Below, piece after piece: positions 11,510 through 58,425 of a stretch of 64,000 nt of DNA. The position numbers and the translations under genes are program-made. The first letter of the stretch is position 1; every line of letters starts with the position of its first letter. The notes below the pieces were generated by a model, which was not told the DNA's origin, did no database searches, and saw only the letters and a program-made list of their open reading frames with translations. The DNA is from Xanthomonas sp. (lineage in GTDB: Bacteria > Pseudomonadota > Gammaproteobacteria > Xanthomonadales > Xanthomonadaceae). Where the stretch lies: assembly GCA_018262705.1 (NCBI GenBank), contig JADFDQ010000002.1:239248-303247 (forward strand), read 5' to 3'.

Positions 11510-11674
11510 CACCCCGTAGGAGCGCACCGCAGGGGCGCGATGAACGTCGTCTCACCCCGTAGGAGCGCACCGCAGGGACGCGATGAACGTCGTCTCACCC
11601 CGTAGGAGCGCACCGCAGGGGCGCGATTGCCGCGATTCGCACCTCTCGGCCTGCGGCCTCGATGTGCTCCTACA
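11510..11674. repeat. GTAG-type REP cluster: three tandem 43-bp units plus an inverted partial copy
   Basis: CACCCCGTAGGAGCGCACCGCAGGGGCGCGAT starts at 11510, 11553, 11596 (43-bp period); inverted GATGTGCTCCTACA ends at 11674; lies between convergent genes. Confidence 0.85.
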
Positions 11675-30628: not shown

Positions 30629-30988
30629 TCAGCGCGGCGCCCAGACCGCCGCGTCCAGCGTTTGCGCTTCCTTTGCGATCTCGACCCGGCCGTTGCGGAT
30701 CGCGACACCTTCGGCGCGCAGTCGTTTCGCCTGCTCGCGCCAGGGGCGCGTTCCGGGTGCAAAAGCAATCCGCCCGTCCGAACGCAGGATCCGGTGCCAG
30801 GGCAGCTGCGGATCCTCGCATTCGCCAAGCACCCGTGCGACCAGCCGCGCGCGCCCGGGCAGTCCGGCGCGCCGCGCGATGCCGCCGTAGCTGGCCACCT
30901 GCCCGCTTTGCACCGCACGGATCGCATCGACGATGCGCTGCTGCGGCGACCGCTTGTCTTCAAGCCGATCCATGATCCGGGTTAGCAT
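30629..30988 (-). CDS. MGMT/Atl family alkyltransferase-like DNA-binding protein
   Basis: GQVASYGGIA, ARLVA, LPWHR (Trp in place of catalytic Cys), EGV; start uncertain. Confidence 0.85.
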   Translation of the reverse strand: MLTRIMDRLEDKRSPQQRIVDAIRAVQSGQVASYGGIARRAGLPGRARLVARVLGECEDPQLPWHRILRSDGRIAFAPGTRPWREQAKRLRAEGVAIRNGRVEIAKEAQTLDAAVWAPR

Positions 30989-31019
30989 AGCGCTCTGCCC
31001 CGTCAACATGCCCGTAGCG

Positions 31020-31430
31020 ATGATCAATTTCGAACAAATCCGCCAGCATCTGCAGTCCGCCGGCTACCACCTGTTGCTGGAAGAGCCCGGACTGGCCTGC
31101 GTCGAACTGTCGCTCGGGCAGGGCAAACGCCATCAGGCCATCTTCCTGGCCGAACTGCAGGACGACGACGGGCGCCGGTATCTGCGGGTGAGCACGTCGA
31201 TCGCTCCGATCACCGGGCTGGATGCGCGCAAGGCGCTGGCGTTCAACTGGGAAAGCCGGGTCGGCTTCCTCGCCATCGGCGAACTCGACGACGTGCGCTA
31301 CCTGCAACTGTGCGAAAACCGCCCTTACGACAGCCTGCTTCCCGCCGAAATCGACCGTCTGATTCTGGAAATCGGCGGCACCGGCGATGCCATGGAAAAG
31401 CCGCTGTCGGCCGGCGGGGATTTGCTGTAG
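31020..31430 (+). CDS. Hypothetical protein, possibly YbjN/type III chaperone-like fold
   Basis: Small alpha/beta pattern (QAIFL, YLRVSTSIAP, ALAFN...GFLAI); family assignment tentative; 3' end lies in the left direct repeat. Confidence 0.5.
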   Translation: MINFEQIRQHLQSAGYHLLLEEPGLACVELSLGQGKRHQAIFLAELQDDDGRRYLRVSTSIAPITGLDARKALAFNWESRVGFLAIGELDDVRYLQLCENRPYDSLLPAEIDRLILEIGGTGDAMEKPLSAGGDLL

Positions 31431-31436
31431 CCGACG
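31408..31436 (+). repeat. Left 29-bp direct repeat (attL-like), contains the stop codon of the upstream gene
   Basis: Exact match to 33495-33523; flanking bases differ. Confidence 0.95.
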
Positions 31437-31679
31437 CGCTAGAGTGAGCGCTACCGCGCAGACGCACGATCCAAGCAGCTAGCATGGGGATGCGAGAATT
31501 CGCTGTCCCGGTGCAGATGCGCGAAACGGGCGGGCATGGAACTTCCGCGGTTGAAGACCTCAGGGTAGGGCGGGCGCCGCGCAGGGGCAAGGCTTGACAG
31601 CGGCGATCTCCGGTAGCGGCGCGCCGAGGATCGGATTAGTCGCATCGTCAATGCTGCGAGCATCGACCGCAGGCGTCGA

Positions 31680-31707
31680 TCAATATTGACTATTGATTTT
31701 GAAATCA
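31680..31707. promoter_or_regulatory. AT-rich promoter/operator-like region with two palindromes
   Basis: TCAATATTGA (31680-31689) and TGATTT-TG-AAATCA (31694-31707); TTGACT at 31686. Confidence 0.4.
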
Positions 31708-31723
31708 GCTATTTTCACGACTT

Positions 31724-32293
31724 GTGCCTGAATTCGCGTCATGGGGAAGGCACTCGCAGGTCGGCGGCAATCCGTCCTGCGAAGCATCCGCGTCGGACAA
31801 ACCGCACGGCGTGCGCATCCGCTACATGGGCGGCTGCCGCTGCGCGCCGTGCCGTTCGGCCAACACGGCCTACGAAACGCAACGCGCCAAAGCGCGCAAG
31901 GCCGGCGACTGGAATGGCATCGTGCCCGCCGACGCTGCGCGCGACCACCTCCACAAACTGCGCCGCCAAGGCATCGGTCGGCGCACCGTGCAGGCGTGCA
32001 CCGATGTCGGCGACACCGTGCTCAGCCAAATCATCAGCGGCAAGAAGACGCGCATCCGCGCGCGCACCGAGCGCCTGATCCTGCGTGTGGGCAAAGCCCA
32101 AGCCGCCGACCATGCGCTTGTCTCCGCGGAACGCTCACGCCGGCTGATCCAGCTGCTGCTCGAAGAGCAGTACACCGAGGCCTACCTGGCCAAGCGGCTG
32201 GGCTACAAGAACCACTACTTGCAATTCGGCGCCGTCATCACGGTGCGCAACGCGGCGCGGATCAAGCGGTTGTATCTGGAGCTGACATCATGA
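31724..32293 (+). CDS. Phage-like protein with HG-x5-Y-x2-GCRC-x2-C motif and two HTH-like segments
   Basis: KPHGVRIRYMGGCRCAPC; later HLHKLRRQGIGRRTV...LSQIISG and YLAKRLG; start uncertain. Confidence 0.6.
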   Translation: MPEFASWGRHSQVGGNPSCEASASDKPHGVRIRYMGGCRCAPCRSANTAYETQRAKARKAGDWNGIVPADAARDHLHKLRRQGIGRRTVQACTDVGDTVLSQIISGKKTRIRARTERLILRVGKAQAADHALVSAERSRRLIQLLLEEQYTEAYLAKRLGYKNHYLQFGAVITVRNAARIKRLYLELTS

Positions 32294-32313
32294 CGCACGC
32301 CACCGCCACGCAC

Positions 32314-32763
32314 CTACGCCGCGCGCCGCGCCTGTTCGGCTTCCCAGCCCTTCAGCGCCAGCAGCACCGTGCGCGGTACCGGGCGTGCGCCGGTGCGGTA
32401 TTGGCTGACGGTGCGGCGGGTCATGCCGATGGCCTCCGCCGCCTGCGCCAAGCTCAAGCCGTGCCTGTCCTGCCAGCGGCGGAAGGCCAGCGTATCGGCG
32501 CGGCCTTCCTGCTCCAGCGCCATCTCCATCACGCGGTCGGCATCCAGCCCTTCGCCATTGGGCCACTCCAACGAATGACCCCAGTCGCCGACCGCCACGC
32601 GGCGGAAGAAGGCGCGGTCGCGCAGTGGTGCGAACACGGCGAAGCGTTCCGGCAGTTCGGACACGTCCACCCGCACCACCTGCCCGCCGGTGTAGGCCAC
32701 TTCCAGCGCCAGACCGCGCAGCGGCTTGACGGATTCGATTCGGTTGACGTTTTGCTTGCTCAT
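32314..32763 (-). CDS. DUF2442 plus C-terminal HTH putative antitoxin
   Basis: FAPLRD..FF..V.V..WG..LEW..GLDAD, then GLSLAQAAEAIGMTRRTVSQY. Confidence 0.82.
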   Translation of the reverse strand: MSKQNVNRIESVKPLRGLALEVAYTGGQVVRVDVSELPERFAVFAPLRDRAFFRRVAVGDWGHSLEWPNGEGLDADRVMEMALEQEGRADTLAFRRWQDRHGLSLAQAAEAIGMTRRTVSQYRTGARPVPRTVLLALKGWEAEQARRAA

Positions 32764-32766
32764 GGC

Positions 32767-33003
32767 TCACCTCGGCGGCGGATTGTTCATGCGGTCCCAC
32801 TCGGCACGGACGGCGGCGGCATTGGCCGTCACCCAGGCAACAGCCTGCGCGATCACGTCAGCAGGCACGCCGGAGTTGACCACCGTGCCGTCGATGCCGA
32901 CCGACGCACGGCCATCGGGATGCAGGACGTGGGCATGAACGGGCGGATGTTCGCTGCCCTGCACCTTGATGATCCAGCTGCGCGCGGAGTGGATTTTGCC
33001 CAT
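32767..33003 (-). CDS. DUF4160 family putative toxin
   Basis: EHPPVHAHV, terminal AEWDRMN; directly upstream of DUF2442; ATG at 33003. Confidence 0.82.
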   Translation of the reverse strand: MGKIHSARSWIIKVQGSEHPPVHAHVLHPDGRASVGIDGTVVNSGVPADVIAQAVAWVTANAAAVRAEWDRMNNPPPR

Positions 33004-33009
33004 GTGCGA

Positions 33010-33038
33010 ATTATGGAGAAATAATTTCTCCATGTCAA
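33010..33038 (-). promoter_or_regulatory. Sigma70 promoter (TTGACA-17-CATAAT) overlapped by a perfect 21-bp palindromic operator
   Basis: -35 at 33038-33033, -10 at 33015-33010; ATGGAGAAAT-A-ATTTCTCCAT at 33013-33033. Confidence 0.8.
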
Positions 33039-33057
33039 GCGCCGTGTATCGGCGCGG

Positions 33058-33087
33058 TTGACAACGCGCTGGATTCGGGGCGATGCT
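33058..33087 (+). promoter_or_regulatory. Divergent sigma70-like promoter for the c4-like/bro transcript
   Basis: TTGACA at 33058-33063, GATGCT 18 nt downstream. Confidence 0.5.
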
Positions 33088-33149
33088 TGCCGTGCAGCCG
33101 CAGTGCGGTTGCCGGGAATCTTGGCAGTGACCCGAAATCCAGGCGCACA

Positions 33150-33191
33150 GAAAAGAGCGCCGATGATCTCCATTGGCGCTCTTTTCGTTTC
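33150..33191 (+). terminator. Intrinsic terminator/attenuator hairpin in the leader
   Basis: GAAAAGAGCGCC / GGCGCTCTTTTC 12-bp stem followed by GTTTC. Confidence 0.6.
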
Positions 33192-33216
33192 TGTGCGTGC
33201 GCTGCCCGCAGTTTGC

Positions 33217-33285
33217 GGCGGGCGGCGCGGGGGCACCTTCGGGTGCGTCGGTCCTGGCCGATCTGCCAACCCCGCGTCGTCCGCC
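33217..33285 (+). ncRNA. P1 c4 / P4 CI-like antisense RNA
   Basis: 16-bp closing stem (33217-33232 with 33270-33285), GCACC-UUCG-GGUGC hairpin, second hairpin, unpaired CUGCCAA complementary to TTGGCAG (33121) and TTGGCA (33293). Confidence 0.72.
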
Positions 33286-33335
33286 ACCCAGCTTGGCAAT
33301 GCGGTGGCGGACTCCATCACTTCCAGGAGTCCGAG

Positions 33336-33500
33336 ATGAACGAAATCACCATCTTTGGGTTTGAAGGCCGGGTTGTCCGCACCGTGGTGCTGGACGAGGA
33401 GCCGTGGTTCGTTGGCCGGGACGTGGCTGACATCCTCAGCTACGCCGACGCTACCAACGCGCTCAAGCAGCTTTGTCGTGGGGTGGTGAAATACCGGCCG
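33336..33500 (+). pseudogene. Truncated Bro-N (phage antirepressor) gene
   Basis: MNEITIFGFEGRVVRTVVLDEEPWFVGRDVADILSY..NALKQLC with GGAG RBS; Bro-like sequence ends inside the right direct repeat. Confidence 0.85.
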
Positions 33501-33523
33501 GCGGGGATTTGCTGTAGCCGACG
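33495..33523 (+). repeat. Right 29-bp direct repeat (attR-like)
   Basis: Exact match to 31408-31436. Confidence 0.95.
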
Positions 33524-33551
33524 TCATCGCGCCGAATCGACGCAGCCGCGC

Positions 33552-34673
33552 TCAGTCCCAGCCCGCCAGCATCAGGAACTTGTAGAACAGCCAGGCCACG
33601 GTGCCCGAAGCCGGGATCGTCAGGATCCACGCCCAGACGATGCGCTCGATCGTGCCGAGCTTGAGCCGACGCGGATTCTTGGCAAAGCCCACGCCCATGA
33701 TCGCGCTCGACACGGTATGGGTGGTCGAGACCGGCATGCCGAAGTGCGCCGCCGCCATCAGCACCGTGGCCGAACTGGTGTCCACCGCGAAGCCGTCGAG
33801 CGGATGCAGCTTGACCATCTTGTGGCCCAGGGTTTTGATAATGCGCCAGCCGCCGGACGCGGTGCCGCAGGCCATCACCAGCGCGCAGGTGACGATGATC
33901 CAGTCGGCGACGTCACTGCCGGCCGAACGCTCGGGATGCATGAAGGACAGGAACCAGGGCAGGCCGTCCAGCGCGCCGGAGGCTTCCGCACCGACCAAAG
34001 TCAGCGCGATCACGCCCATGGTTTTTTGCGCGTCATTGTGACCATGCGCATAGCCCATGTAGGCCGCGGAGCAGATCTGCAGTTTGCCGAACAGGGCGTT
34101 GATCCAACGCGGGCGCGCCAGCCTGCGCAGCGCGCCACCGCTGCGTTCCAGCCCGCGGATCAGCACATACAGCAGCACCATCAGGATCAGCCCCAGCAGG
34201 AATCCGGCCAGCGGCGAAGTCACCATCGGCACCAGCACCTTCCACAACAGACCTTTGCTCTGGGTCCAGCGCTCGGCGGCCTGCACCCAGATCAAGGAAT
34301 TCCAGTTGCCGTGCGAAGCCGACAGCGCCGCGCCGCACAGTCCGCCGATCAGCGCATGCGAGGACGACGAAGGCAGGCCAAGCCACCACGTCACGAGGTT
34401 CCAGACGATCGCGCCGAGCAGGGCCGCCAGCACCAGCTGGGAACTGGCCGCGACCACCTCGGTATTGACGATCCCGGTGGCGATCGTTGCCGCAACCGCG
34501 GTTCCGGTCAGCGCGCCGAGCATGTTCGTGGTAGCCGCCAGACCCACCGCCTTCCCGGGCGAGAGCACCTTGGTCGCCACCGAGGCTGCGATCGAATTGG
34601 CGGTGTCGTGGAAGCCGTTGATGAACTCGAACACGAGCGCGGCGGCGATCACCACGAGGACTAAGGTCAGCAT
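33552..34673 (-). CDS. PiT family inorganic phosphate transporter
   Basis: NGFHDTAN and GHNDAQKTMG signature motifs, PVSTTH. Confidence 0.93.
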   Translation of the reverse strand: MLTLVLVVIAAALVFEFINGFHDTANSIAASVATKVLSPGKAVGLAATTNMLGALTGTAVAATIATGIVNTEVVAASSQLVLAALLGAIVWNLVTWWLGLPSSSSHALIGGLCGAALSASHGNWNSLIWVQAAERWTQSKGLLWKVLVPMVTSPLAGFLLGLILMVLLYVLIRGLERSGGALRRLARPRWINALFGKLQICSAAYMGYAHGHNDAQKTMGVIALTLVGAEASGALDGLPWFLSFMHPERSAGSDVADWIIVTCALVMACGTASGGWRIIKTLGHKMVKLHPLDGFAVDTSSATVLMAAAHFGMPVSTTHTVSSAIMGVGFAKNPRRLKLGTIERIVWAWILTIPASGTVAWLFYKFLMLAGWD

Positions 34674-48158: not shown

Positions 48159-49652
48159 ATGAACCTGATCGAAACCCTTACCCCCCTGCGCGCGCACGGC
48201 AAGGCGCGCACCACCGGCCTTGAAGACGCGGTGCTGCTCGATTTCGCCACCCGCGATCCCCAGCTCGGCGAAGCCGTCGCCGCCGCTGGCGAAGACTACG
48301 CGCGCATCCGCGTCGAATTCCCGGAACTCCTGGACATGGACGAAGCCGCGCAGGCGCACGAAGTCCAGTCCGGCTTCGTCAATTTCTACGCCGAAGACGC
48401 CGCCAACCCCTACGTGGCGCTGGCCGCGCGCGGGCCGTGGCTGGTGACCCTCAAGGGCGCCGTGCTCTACGACACCGGCGGCTACGGCATGCTCGGTTTC
48501 GGCCACACCCCGGAGCCGGTGGTTGCGGCGATGGCCAAGCCGCAGCCGATGGCCAACATCATGACCCCGAACGTCTCGCAGCTGCGCTTCGCGCGGGCGA
48601 TGAAAAAGGAAATCGGACAGACCCGCGGCGGTTGCCCCTATGCCGCCTTCATGTGCCTGAACTCCGGTTCGGAATCGGTGTCGCTGGCCTCGCGGATTGT
48701 CGATGCCAACGCCAAGTCCATGACCGACCCCGGCGCGCGTCACGCCGGCAAGACGATCAAGCGGCTGGTCGTGAAGGGCGCTTTCCACGGCCGCACCGAA
48801 GCGCCGGCGCTGTATTCGGATTCCTCGCGCAAGACCTACCAGCAGCATCTGGCCAGTTTCCGCGACGAGCACAGCGTGCTCACCGTGCCGCCTTACGACG
48901 AGGACGCGCTGCGCAAGGTGTTCGCCGACGCCGAGGCCAACGGCTGGTTCATCGAGGCAATGTTCCTCGAGCCGGTGATGGGCGAAGGCGATCCCGGACG
49001 CAGCGTGCCGGTCGCGTTCTACGACCTCGCCCGCGAACTGACCGCCGGCCACGGCAGCCTGCTGCTGGTGGATTCGATCCAGGCCGGCCTGCGCACCACC
49101 GGCTACCTGTCGATCGTCGACTCTCCCGGCTTCGAGCAGAGCAGCGCGCCGGACATGGAGACCTATTCCAAGGCGCTCAACGCCGGCCAGTACCCGCTCT
49201 CGGTGCTGGCGGTCGGGCAGCGCGCCGCGGCGATCTACAAGCGCGGCCTGTACGGCAACACCATGACCGCCAACCCGCGCGCGCTGGACGTGGCCTGCGC
49301 GGTGCTGGCGATGGTGACGCCGGAGCTGCGCAGCAACATCCAGGCCCGCGGCAAGCAGGCGCTGGAACTGCTGGAGAAACTGAAGTCGGAACTGGACAGC
49401 CGCATCACCAAGGTGCAGGGCACCGGACTGCTGTTCTCCTGCGAACTGGCCAAGGACTACAAGTGCTTCGGCGCCGGTTCCACCGAGGAATGGATGCGCG
49501 AGCGCGGCATCGGCGTGATCCACGGCGGTGAAAACTCGCTGCGCTTCACCCCGCATTTTTCGATCACCGAAGCCGAACTGGAGCTGGTGGTGTCGAAAAT
49601 CCGCCACGCCCTGCTCGAAGGCCCGCGGCTGCAGCAGTCCGCCGCCGCCTGA
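48159..49652 (+). CDS. Class III aminotransferase, likely L-lysine 6-aminotransferase
   Basis: NSGSE, FHGRT, EPVMGEG, DSIQ, YSK (PLP Lys); recalled resemblance to the Flavobacterium lutescens Lat enzyme, unverified. Confidence 0.75.
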   Translation: MNLIETLTPLRAHGKARTTGLEDAVLLDFATRDPQLGEAVAAAGEDYARIRVEFPELLDMDEAAQAHEVQSGFVNFYAEDAANPYVALAARGPWLVTLKGAVLYDTGGYGMLGFGHTPEPVVAAMAKPQPMANIMTPNVSQLRFARAMKKEIGQTRGGCPYAAFMCLNSGSESVSLASRIVDANAKSMTDPGARHAGKTIKRLVVKGAFHGRTEAPALYSDSSRKTYQQHLASFRDEHSVLTVPPYDEDALRKVFADAEANGWFIEAMFLEPVMGEGDPGRSVPVAFYDLARELTAGHGSLLLVDSIQAGLRTTGYLSIVDSPGFEQSSAPDMETYSKALNAGQYPLSVLAVGQRAAAIYKRGLYGNTMTANPRALDVACAVLAMVTPELRSNIQARGKQALELLEKLKSELDSRITKVQGTGLLFSCELAKDYKCFGAGSTEEWMRERGIGVIHGGENSLRFTPHFSITEAELELVVSKIRHALLEGPRLQQSAAA

Positions 49653-49823
49653 GTCTGACGGCAGGAAGTGCGATCCAATGGGGCGGCCGCTGGCCACCTC
49701 GTTCTTGAGCAGCGCCAAAGCAAGCATGAACATCCAGGCTTTCCAATCATAAAGACTACAACTTGACATCAATGCCTGAGAGGAGTACAGAGCGATTTCC
49801 TGGGTGACTTCGGGGGCGGCGTT

Positions 49824-50474
49824 ATGTGCGGATTCAAAGCATTTTCGACCGGTTTCGCCTTCGCCTTAGCATGCTCACCAGCAAGCTCGAACGCGCAGCC
49901 GGCAACCTCGGATGCACCGTGCGTCGTTGGCAACGGCATCCTGCGCATCACTCCACAAGGTATGTCAGATGTGCGGGAAATCATCGTGACTCGTCCTGAT
50001 GGCGGAATCGTCTACCTGTATTCCCCAAGGCTGGGCGTCTACAACCTGATGTCTCCCGTCCACGGTCTCATCGAGGTAAATCCCGCTTCCCAGCGAGGCG
50101 CACAATACGCGGATGATGGAAAGCTGCATGAACGGGAGATTTTTTCTGACTCCGGAAGCTACCGAGTGGATGTGCTGGGAAAATCCGGTAAACCCGTGCC
50201 CGGCATCCAGTATTCCCGCCTTGCGTGTTCACTTGACTTCGTCGATGGCCGAGGATTCCAACGCGCCACTCCCCTGCACGGCGTGGCTCGGGATCCCGTT
50301 TCCTTCATTTCTGATTGTCCGCCGGAGGGGCAGTCAGATCTGAGAGCTGCATGCAACTCATCTTCTGGATGCCAAAACGGGGGGCACGGCTATTGCTGTT
50401 CTTCAGCGGGTCAAGGAGGACCGTGCTATTGCAATAATTGCTGTGTAGCCTTGACCGCTAGGGTCAGGCCATGA
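49824..50474 (+). CDS. Hypothetical secreted protein with 9-Cys C-terminal tail
   Basis: Signal-peptide-like N-terminus; tail C-x11-C-x5-C-x7-CC-x8-C-x-C-x2-CC. Confidence 0.6.
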   Translation: MCGFKAFSTGFAFALACSPASSNAQPATSDAPCVVGNGILRITPQGMSDVREIIVTRPDGGIVYLYSPRLGVYNLMSPVHGLIEVNPASQRGAQYADDGKLHEREIFSDSGSYRVDVLGKSGKPVPGIQYSRLACSLDFVDGRGFQRATPLHGVARDPVSFISDCPPEGQSDLRAACNSSSGCQNGGHGYCCSSAGQGGPCYCNNCCVALTARVRP

Positions 50475-50589
50475 TCAGCCGCCTGAAGACCATTTTGAGC
50501 ATCGCAACTGAGCTGCTCTTCCGTCCCTCCTGCCAAGCGCAACAGCCATCACTGACGCCATTGTCAGGCGCGTTGCCTGCGGCGGCCAC

Positions 50590-51033
50590 ATGCTTGTGAC
50601 GCACGCGAAGATGGCCATTCGCGCCACGATCTTTTGTCTTGCCTTGGCGGTGTCACAAGGCGCAAGCGCGTTGCCCGGCATCCTGGATGCGACGTGTTCA
50701 ATCAAGGGGCAGGCATTCGTTCTGGATACCGGACGCATCAGGGTGCCGTCGCAGGCCGCCGTACTGCTGCCGAGCGGTAAACTATTGCGGCTACGCTACC
50801 CGCCTGAAAACATCGACACCTTGGGGCCACAGTATCCTCGCGGTCACGTAGCGATTCCATTCAGAACACTGAAAGGAGTTGATGCCTCGTCGCGGCAGGT
50901 TGCTGTGTTCACGGTACCGGGGACCTATCGGTTCTTGATGCAAGACGCCAATACCGCAGAAAGCATGGAACTCCATCAATTGCAATGCAGCGTCACGCTC
51001 ACCAAAGCGCAAATCGACGCGACAGGTCTTTGA
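50590..51033 (+). CDS. Hypothetical secreted protein, apparent paralog of the upstream N-domain
   Basis: Signal-peptide-like MAIRATIFCLALAVSQGASA (ATG 50611 possible); shared Cys...F-x3-G-x-YR...CS pattern. Confidence 0.6.
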   Translation: MLVTHAKMAIRATIFCLALAVSQGASALPGILDATCSIKGQAFVLDTGRIRVPSQAAVLLPSGKLLRLRYPPENIDTLGPQYPRGHVAIPFRTLKGVDASSRQVAVFTVPGTYRFLMQDANTAESMELHQLQCSVTLTKAQIDATGL

Positions 51034-51140
51034 AACGGACAGCTTTCTCCGCCTGCGCCAGGCTCGACGGAATACCTTGCGACGCTCTCCAGTCAACTCG
51101 CCACTGGCCTCCTCGTTCGTCTGTCGGCTAGTCTGCGCGC

Positions 51141-54546: not shown

Positions 54547-54792
54547 AGGGGCCAGGGGCCAGGGATCGGAGGTCAGGGGCCAGAGATCAAGCGACAAGCC
54601 GCGGGTTGCCCGGACGGGTTCGAGCAGGCCAAGGATGGCCTGCGTCCGCGAATCGGAGCCGGATGCGGAGTCTTCGCGGCGAACCCGTCTGGGTGACGCG
54701 CGGCTTGAGCCGGGGATCGGGGGCCGGGGGCCGGGGGCCGGGGGCCGGGGGCCGGGGGCCGGGAACCGGGAACCGGGAACCGGGAACCGGGA
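54547..54792 (+). repeat. G-run tandem tracts (GGGGCC/GGGAACC) flanking a 112-bp structured element
   Basis: Tracts at about 54547-54582 and 54711-54792. Confidence 0.85.
54596..54707. repeat. 112-bp structured repeat element, copy 1
   Basis: Identical to 58264-58375; terminal AAGCCGCG...CGCGGCTT inverted repeat with internal hairpins. Confidence 0.9.
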
Positions 54793-58202: not shown

Positions 58203-58425
58203 GGGGCCAGGGACCAGGGACCGGGGATCGGGGATCGGGGATCGGGGATCGGGGAAAAGCGTAAAGCCGCGGGTTGCCCGGACGGGTTCGAGCAGGCCAA
58301 GGATGGCCTGCGTCCGCGAATCGGAGCCGGATGCGGAGTCTTCGCGGCGAACCCGTCTGGGTGACGCGCGGCTTGGGCCAGGGCCAGGGATCAGGGATCA
58401 GGGATCGGGGGCCGGGGCCGGGAAA
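58203..58425 (+). repeat. G-run tandem tracts (GGGGATC/GGGACC) flanking a 112-bp structured element
   Basis: Tracts at about 58203-58254 and 58375-58425. Confidence 0.85.
58264..58375. repeat. 112-bp structured repeat element, copy 2
   Basis: Identical to 54596-54707. Confidence 0.9.

Follow-up and report, generated by a model that had tools for sequence, protein, structure and literature searches.

The window analysed here is a stretch of 64,000 nucleotides from contig JADFDQ010000002.1 (assembly GCA_018262705.1, filed as Xanthomonas sp.), whose host lineage is a Thermomonas-like member of Lysobacteraceae. Between 31408 and 33523 it contains a phage-derived islet, in which two identical 29-mers (CGGCCGGCGGGGATTTGCTGTAGCCGACG) enclose an insert of 2,058 bp between a conserved ybjN-like gene and a convergent gene for a pitA-type phosphate transporter (Table 1). 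The insert carries a gene with a Cys-rich N-terminus and an annotated helix-turn-helix (HTH) relationship, hereafter the Cys/HTH gene, followed by a DUF4160-DUF2442 toxin-antitoxin (TA) pair, an isrK-like region, a C4 antisense RNA and the beginning of a Bro-N/Ant anti-repressor gene (ant) that is cut at the right repeat. The islet most likely is a fixed and non-autonomous scar of temperate-phage DNA that is immobile now under either of its two main origins, because its right repeat lacks a phage arm, the 29-mer is no simple recombinase site and the unit is confined to one lineage and one site. The original prediction, which had been made from the letters of the window, offered a collapsed prophage and a capture by microhomology as origins; both are still live. 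The data show that the insert is polymorphic among relatives, what its cargo consists of, that ant is cut at the junction, and that neither a recombinase nor another use of this site was found; the joining mechanism and all functions given below are what we infer, and our tentative preference is for a one-step illegitimate capture.

Table 1. Features of the islet and its flanks (positions in the window; aa, amino acids).
Feature	Position	Strand	Remarks
Conserved ybjN-like gene, 136 aa	31020..31430	+	intact; last 7 codons and stop in left repeat
Left 29-bp direct repeat	31408..31436		22 nt coding, stop codon, 6 nt lineage-specific spacer
Non-coding left end of insert	31437..31723	+	sigma-70-like promoter among short palindromes
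Phage early gene, Cys-rich N-terminus (Cys/HTH gene)	31724..32293	+	phrog_1590, E 3e-19; start codon tentative
DhiA-type antitoxin, DUF2442 and C-terminal XRE-type HTH	32314..32763	-	full length; PF10387 E 8e-10, 39.3 bits (cut-off 23.9); PF13560 E 3e-7
DhiT-type toxin, DUF4160	32767..33033	-	PF13711 E 7e-8, 33.1 bits (cut-off 23)
TA operon promoter TTGACA-17-CATAAT	33010..33038	-	11/12 consensus match
Structured region, weakly isrK-like	33094..33186	+	RF01394 23.9 bits, below gathering score 50
C4 antisense RNA	33211..33291	+	RF01695 65 bits (gathering 45); model 1-87 of 87
5' fragment of Bro-N/Ant anti-repressor gene, 55 codons	33336..33500	+	pseudogene
Right 29-bp direct repeat	33495..33523		first 6 nt are ant codons 54-55
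Native ybjN-pitA spacer remnant	33524..33551		with 31431-31436, the 34-bp spacer minus the insert
pitA-type phosphate transporter	33552..34673	-	intact right-hand neighbour; PF01384 E 9e-90

The perfect 29-mers at both ends of the islet, on which the original prediction was founded, occur nowhere else in the window. Exact pairs of this length are expected about 1e-7 times by chance in 64 kb of the same composition, and the identity of the two copies breaks off sharply at all four edges. The left copy comprises the last two bases of Ser130, the codons for AGGDLL, the stop codon and 6 nt past the ybjN-like gene, which it leaves intact, as had been noted earlier. The 29-mer is devoid of dyad symmetry (10 of 29 positions match its own reverse complement), the islet has no terminal inverted repeats (its terminal 30 nt give 4/30 inverted matches), and arm-type repeats beside the left copy were looked for and not found.

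The window appears to be derived from a metagenome-type assembly, and certain Logan contigs stop right at the repeat (record 11 of run X2 begins at 31408). Both observations are compatible with an assembly artefact, for which the original prediction had allowed, here by way of a chimera between a phage contig and a metagenome-assembled genome (MAG), fused at a short shared k-mer, from which the duplication or the whole insert would have arisen. We consider this extremely improbable and reject it, because independent Logan contigs from six public runs of two studies, one on biofilter metagenomes (2020) and one on groundwater metagenomes (2024), cross both junctions without a mismatch. The spanning contigs cover 30999-31544 and 31770-34100 in run X1, 31213-32027 and 33326-33580 in X4, 30984-31446 and 33329-33576 in X6, and 32073-33651 in X2, and the loci L001 and L118 also span. 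The duplication thus stands.

The ybjN-like gene is a conserved host gene with 1328 homologues, which reach 74-90% identity in Thermomonas and other Lysobacteraceae and are in part labelled YbjN domain-containing by their sources; the protein has no match in Pfam. Its C-terminus SAGGDLL* is identical in 14 of 16 aligned relatives, and the other two read SANGDLL. For the comparison of the site we used species-representative Lysobacteraceae genomes (the best 80 of 317 matches), about 75 of which harbor the ybjN-like gene and pitA in convergent orientation at a distance of 11-304 bp, and the insert of 2,058 bp is therefore lineage-specific. The search for empty sites that the original prediction had proposed was accordingly successful, and it extends to wastewater run X8, in which contigs with about 92% identity to the window join 31429/31431 straight to 33586/33582. 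The second part of the same proposal gave the opposite outcome: neither a larger element with an integrase nor any other mobile cargo was recognised at the ybjN-pitA site in the 80 species genomes, the X8 strains and a scan of JGI metagenomes for the 24-mer, from which only two contigs emerged, one with the empty site and an unrelated one with purD. In three genomes (L026, L050, L070) pitA is not located within 6 kb, and nothing there matches the islet genes, the downstream open reading frames (ORFs) having been listed without a domain-library search. The ybjN-pitA gap of a Lysobacteraceae MAG (L078, 6410-8510) is occupied by genes for a response regulator, a CheX/CheC-like phosphatase and a PAS-GGDEF protein, so that this spacer tolerates other kinds of insertion.

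Deletion of one repeat together with the 2,058 bp leaves a spacer of 34 bp, which on its right side is similar to that of the closest relative (L002/L111; 90% YbjN identity). Of the 29-mer, this relative has no more than nt 1-24, in a single copy. The nearest relatives deviate in the 5-6 nt that follow the ybjN stop codon (CCGACG versus CGCAAC, CCGCCT and GCGCCC), and the outer end of the repeat consequently consists of lineage-specific bases.

The cargo of the islet had been described as a Cys/HTH phage gene, a DUF4160-DUF2442 pair, a c4-like RNA and a truncated Bro-N gene. All four were recovered, with the single correction that the Bro-N gene starts at 33336 and not at 33337. The cargo falls into three modules, and the leader of the left one (31437-32313) contains the promoter TTGACT-18-TATTTT (31686-31715) amid the palindromes TCAATATTGA and TGATTT..AAATCA. 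The Cys/HTH gene shows 53-71% identity to genes in seven IMG/VR contigs. In two of them the homologue is followed by gemA- and Mor-like ORFs as in Mu-like phages, a naming made by reading only, and the ORFs of the second such contig are 37-40% identical to those of the first. The gene moreover shares about 30% identity with genes of Arthrobacter phages that carry the annotation "HTH DNA binding protein", and searches of Pfam, NCBIfam and PDB gave no match. A second element in the same six metagenome runs shares only 31492-31799 (308 bp that comprise the promoter region and codons 1-25 of the Cys/HTH gene) with the islet at about 98% identity and has other flanks; in X1-X3, the three runs in which both are readable, it is 1.4-2.2x as deep as the islet. 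It may represent a related phage from the community.

The genes of the TA module are both of full length by comparison, and the 404 homologues of the antitoxin measure 144-150 aa. Homologues of the toxin are called as proteins of 78 aa, and the alignment begins at residue 11 of the window ORF. The true start of the toxin probably is the ATG at 33003, because the promoter sits within the longer ORF, and this start would imply a leaderless or nearly leaderless product of 78 aa. The toxin gene comes first, only 3 nt separate it from the antitoxin gene, and one promoter lies upstream of both. A perfect palindrome of 21 nt (ATGGAGAAATAATTTCTCCAT, 33013-33033) is located exactly between the -35 and -10 hexamers and is likely the operator of this promoter. 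It is overlapped by a weaker divergent promoter (32996-33025, plus strand) that is directed at the isrK-like/c4/ant region, and the antitoxin might therefore control this side of the islet as well. The predicted roles are those of a growth-inhibiting toxin and an autoregulating antitoxin, with abortive infection as a possible outcome. The pair may also hold the islet in place, as the original prediction had supposed; the sole experimental study of the family names ccdAB2, not dhiTA, in its section on plasmid stability (PMC8198452).

The DNA of the TA cassette has homology to at least eight unrelated chromosomal or phage contexts (including L113, L116, L121, L089, L090, L123 and L127). The cassette is found between genes for a TonB receptor and glmS, between an MmeI-type restriction-modification system and fpg, beside an IS110 transposase, beside parDE, between DUF4351 and znuCB, in a TA-rich phage region, and with portal- and terminase-like ORFs on an IMG/VR contig read as P2-like. 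The homology block extends from the antitoxin stop codon, or a point at most about 22 nt off it, to the -35 box (33038-33043). Given these bounds in many contexts, the TA pair behaves as a compact and self-contained module of about 727 bp that travels with sharp borders and without a recognisable mobility gene.

The plus-strand region beyond the TA promoter (33042-33494) comprises two RNA elements upstream of ant. A strong terminator hairpin (33150-33186; terminator scan) closes the isrK-like region, and 45 nt separate the C4 RNA gene from the start codon of ant downstream of it. By eye, TTGGCA (~33293-33298) and GGTGGCGGAC (~33303-33312) in the ant leader are complementary to the c4 segments TGCCAA and GTCCGCCACC; a computation of the duplex energy between c4 and leader gave no signal above that of shuffled sequences. 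In phage P1, the c4 RNA controls the synthesis of Ant (PMC8201110).

The ant gene itself is dead. Its remaining 55 codons cover positions 2-35 of the 96 positions of the Bro-N domain in Pfam and match anti-repressor families in PHROGs with E-values down to 6e-17. Full Ant homologues run on for more than 200 aa, and the window thus holds a gene fragment only. The ORF continues through the repeat into the antisense strand of pitA, which makes it a pseudogene. The homology to the Ant protein of the Xylella phage Xfas53 spans residues 1-55 and stops at Pro55. Xfas53 Ant and an IMG/VR homologue (L093) read CRGVxK(C/R)YP followed by (I/L)P/QT..G, and in the window CRGVVKYRP leads on to AGICCS.

The right junction, where ant is cut, bears on the origin of the islet. 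Codons 54-55 (CGG CCG, R-P) coincide exactly with the first 6 nt of the right repeat, as the original prediction had stated. Pro55 is kept in two of nine aligned homologues (Xfas53 Ant and L093), so that at least CCG, and up to CGGCCG, would have been common to both recombining partners. As read from the sequence, the right joint would accordingly be illegitimate and gene-internal, and 3-6 nt of it would be shared by the partners. The ant coding sequence directly abuts the right repeat (33494/33495), and an attR arm therefore does not exist.

None of the islet's ORFs (Cys/HTH, both TA genes and Bro-N) belongs to a recombinase family in Pfam and PHROGs, nor do the first three in NCBIfam, which agrees with the original observation that no recombinase is encoded. 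A transposase (Pfam, PHROGs) or a replication gene was not recognised in the islet either. This composition, together with the repeats, was compared with the known modes of integration. A transposon or insertion sequence is rejected on account of the lacking terminal inverted repeats and transposase and of a duplication of 29 bp instead of the usual 2-14 bp. Transposition of the Mu type, which duplicates 5 bp, is rejected for the same length of 29 bp despite the Cys/HTH homologues in contigs read as Mu-like. Serine integrases leave just 2-12 bp of shared sequence, less than the 29 bp shared here, and are likewise rejected. Integration of the Cas1-Cas2 type also produces duplications of about 29 bp; no repeat array is present in the window. 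A phage satellite (P4-like or a phage-inducible chromosomal island) is rejected because the islet has only three complete ORFs and no integrase, replication or hijacking gene of its own. An attP inside ant, from which excision would rebuild the gene, is rejected since the circle junction ...KYRPAGICCSRRARVSATAQTHDPSS* is unlike the Bro-N homologues. Finally, an integrative mobile element exploiting Xer (IMEX) is rejected, as the window contains no dif-like site (28 bp, two inverted arms around a 6-bp spacer) at up to three mismatches and the 29-mer is without a dyad.

The perfect direct repeats and the intact cargo genes would also suit a live element without an integrase, in which the 29-mers form a working minimal att pair and the recombinase is supplied in trans, either from a helper phage or from the host. 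Such a trans-mobilised addiction or anti-phage cassette (related to satellites, cis-mobilizable elements (CIMEs) or IMEX) would carry DhiTA and c4 into the 3' end of a protein-coding gene, and the distribution of the TA cassette over many unrelated contexts documents that it moves somehow. Elsewhere, however, the cassette moves with other borders (32314 to ~33041) and not with the 29-mers. The islet as a unit was found only in the same lineage and at the same site in look-ups with its exact proteins. Its right site has no non-coding arm, since the ant coding sequence abuts, and the 29-mer is neither dif-like nor equipped with the dyad that a simple site of the Cre or Xer type needs. A circle would restore merely an ant stub of 80 codons. 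A joint of an empty site or a circle was not encountered in the six runs with the islet, a search of low sensitivity in contigs only about 5x deep, in which a rare excision could escape notice. We hold a live element to be very improbable. The same evidence bears on the unrecognised att site and minimal mobile cassette of the original prediction, which we do not retain: mobile cargo was not recognised at this site in the relatives compared, the core is missing from IMG/VR, and the islet shows neither an attR arm nor a dyad.

A prophage that decayed in place is a far more serious explanation. The repeat spans the last codons and the stop codon of a conserved gene that is kept intact, and all of the cargo is of the temperate-phage type. 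According to this scenario, a phage whose attP contained at least the last 29 bp of ybjN integrated site-specifically by means of a tyrosine integrase, giving rise to attL and attR; its attP would read the 29-mer followed by CGCTAGAGTGAGCGC. A single deletion, which began at ant codon 55 and reached the inner side of the attR core, would then have taken int and kept the left 2 kb. This deletion might have been promoted by the integrase, with CGGCCG in ant as a pseudo-site recombining with the overlap region of attR, or it might have been an ordinary deletion at microhomology. The overlap of 6 nt (CGGCCG) is expected if the overlap region lies at the gene-internal edge of the identity block. 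Deletions that depend on lambda Int and end exactly at the att crossover were reportedly described by Parkinson and Davis in 1971. Furthermore, immI-like c4-ant modules and morons are often located near prophage ends, as exemplified by immI of P22. Because integrases classically leave a repeat by which a gene regains its 3' end, and because integrase-less elements flanked by att sites are a described class (CIME; PMC5704250), the decayed prophage has the stronger prior.

Every specific prediction of the decayed prophage that was tested nevertheless came back negative. No phage or prophage with the core or the site was detected in the 80 related genomes, in IMG/VR and in the JGI scan, and the number of integrase-bearing elements at this site is zero in both the genomes and IMG/VR. 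None of 2.9 million contigs in IMG/VR contains the 29-mer, a degenerate form of the 3' end of ybjN or a ybjN peptide pattern, the C-terminal one included. The scenario also demands that the identity block agree with 5-6 nt of a spacer that evolves fast and differs in the closest relatives. Arm-type repeats by attL and a dyad in the core are missing, a remnant of int was not found with Pfam and PHROGs, and the endpoint of the deletion must have hit exactly at or inside a target of about 30 bp. Taken together, we leave the decayed prophage a substantial chance, though one clearly short of even.

The reading that we favour, tentatively and at a little less than even chances, is the one-step illegitimate capture with a target duplication of 23-29 bp. 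A contiguous phage stretch of 2,058 bp would have entered the 34-bp spacer between ybjN and pitA once, in the ancestor of the Thermomonas lineage, and brought along an early promoter with the Cys/HTH gene, a DhiTA-type moron, the isrK-like and c4 RNAs and the start of ant in this order. The insertion would have required two illegitimate joints and no recombinase. Replication or repair may have left the chromosome at 31436, 6 nt past the ybjN stop codon, whereupon the 2,058 nt of phage DNA were presumably copied or ligated in. Re-entry would have taken place 23-29 nt further back, at the GC-rich microhomology CGGCCG common to ant codons 54-55 and the host. Since the point of re-entry would lie upstream of the exit point, the segment in between would have been copied twice, giving the "repeat", which would be a target duplication and not a pair of att sites. 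A precedent for such a process is SPDIR (short-patch double illegitimate recombination), in which single-stranded DNA anneals at microhomologies and is incorporated in replication (bioRxiv 10.1101/2023.11.22.568220).

A duplication derived from the host explains the lineage-specific bases after the stop codon without further assumptions. The capture furthermore needs no coincidence that places a truncated gene exactly at the repeat, and it explains the lack of att use elsewhere. Under either origin, the candidates for remaining activity are the c4 RNA, the operon of the TA pair and the Cys/HTH gene with its operator-rich promoter, and the c4 RNA could silence the ant gene of incoming related phages.

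Several points weigh against the illegitimate capture. Tyrosine integrases classically leave behind just such a perfect repeat, by which a conserved gene regains its 3' end, and the remnants of prophages greatly outnumber the illegitimate captures on record. The documented patches of SPDIR measure 3 to ~100 bp and usually replace resident DNA, whereas the islet adds 2 kb and a duplication of 29 bp. The overlap at the right joint is backed by Pro55 only, as Arg54 is not conserved, and the odds of a chance proline are about 1 in 16-20. At the left joint, microhomology is readable only from the donor base preceding CGCTAGAG. Finally, the parent phage was not found, and the contiguity of the 2,058 bp in the donor is thus an assumption. 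The best match to the Ant fragment was 63%, and a search for homologues of the 62-aa Ant fragment gave no result. The 25-mer of the promoter/operator gave no lead to the parent phage, nor did a DNA search of INPHARED. The Cys/HTH and DUF2442 proteins were found in different phages and never together.

Apart from its somewhat unusual junction, the islet is an ordinary phage-derived remnant composed of known module families. The analysis removes a candidate for a new mobile element and a new att site, and it illustrates that insertion can, as a side effect, enclose phage genes in a perfect repeat. If the illegitimate capture is true, the islet represents a clean natural case of the recombinase-free domestication of a phage immunity and TA block, and an example of capture with a target duplication of 29 bp, which has rarely been documented in bacteria.

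Some further features were observed elsewhere in the window. Two direct copies of a 161-bp element (54589-54749 and 58257-58417) are 89% identical overall, with an exact match of 112 bp, and each copy is edged by heptanucleotide microsatellites (runs of GGGGGCC, GGGAACC and GGGGATC). A 43-bp tandem repeat (CACCCCGTAGGAGCGCACCGCAGGGGCGCGATGAACGTCGTCT) is present in three units at 11510-11638. A patch of low GC content (49500-51100; 0.58 compared with the window mean of 0.66) contains the ORFs 49824-50474, with a Cys-rich C-terminus, and 50590-51033, both of which have hydrophobic N-termini and look secreted.

The islet shares individual traits with several known systems. With illegitimate integration, i.e. 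SPDIR, double illegitimate recombination and homology-facilitated illegitimate recombination, it has in common a GC-rich overlap of 3-6 nt, the missing signature of a recombinase and the character of a one-off event. CIMEs and cryptic prophage remnants have the same flanking direct repeats that restore the 3' end of the target, cargo of temperate elements and no recombination genes (PMC5704250). As in CIMEs, the genes for integration and transfer are lost and the cargo is kept. In CIMEs both att sites keep the arm DNA needed by an arm-binding tyrosine integrase, and integrase-bearing elements at the same att site of other genomes make cis-mobilisation possible. In the islet the truncated ant frame runs straight into the right repeat, which leaves no attR arm, arm-type repeats are missing on the left, and no integrase-bearing relative was found at the site; an origin of its repeat by site-specific recombination is putative. 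IMEX elements, represented by filamentous phages of Xanthomonas and Vibrio, likewise lack an integrase and are flanked by repeats of about 28-29 bp, but the 29-mer of the islet is not dif-like and is located in a gene end instead of the terminus, and the cargo is not that of a filamentous phage.

The right part of the islet resembles the immI operon (c4-icd-ant) of the phages P1 and P7, in which the anti-repressor gene likewise has a C4-family RNA immediately upstream of it and in the same orientation. In contrast to immI, there is no icd-like ORF between the RNA and ant, the Ant protein is of the Bro-N type, and the gene is cut after 55 codons, which leaves only the RNA able to act. The TA pair corresponds to the DhiT/DhiA family with the domains DUF4160 and DUF2442, which has been validated in Dickeya dadantii (PMC8198452; see also PMC12065111). 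DhiTA of D. dadantii 3937 exhibits the same two Pfam domains, the same unusual toxin-first order and the same tight gene spacing, and its autoregulation, which has been demonstrated in Dickeya (PMC8198452; PMC12065111), fits the palindrome in the promoter of the islet. Toxicity and neutralisation are predicted here from the genes. Unlike DhiA, the antitoxin of the islet possesses an additional C-terminal HTH of the XRE type, and its cassette sits in phage-derived DNA. The islet thus provides the DhiTA family, so far tested only in Dickeya, with an HTH-fused variant of the antitoxin and with a phage context.

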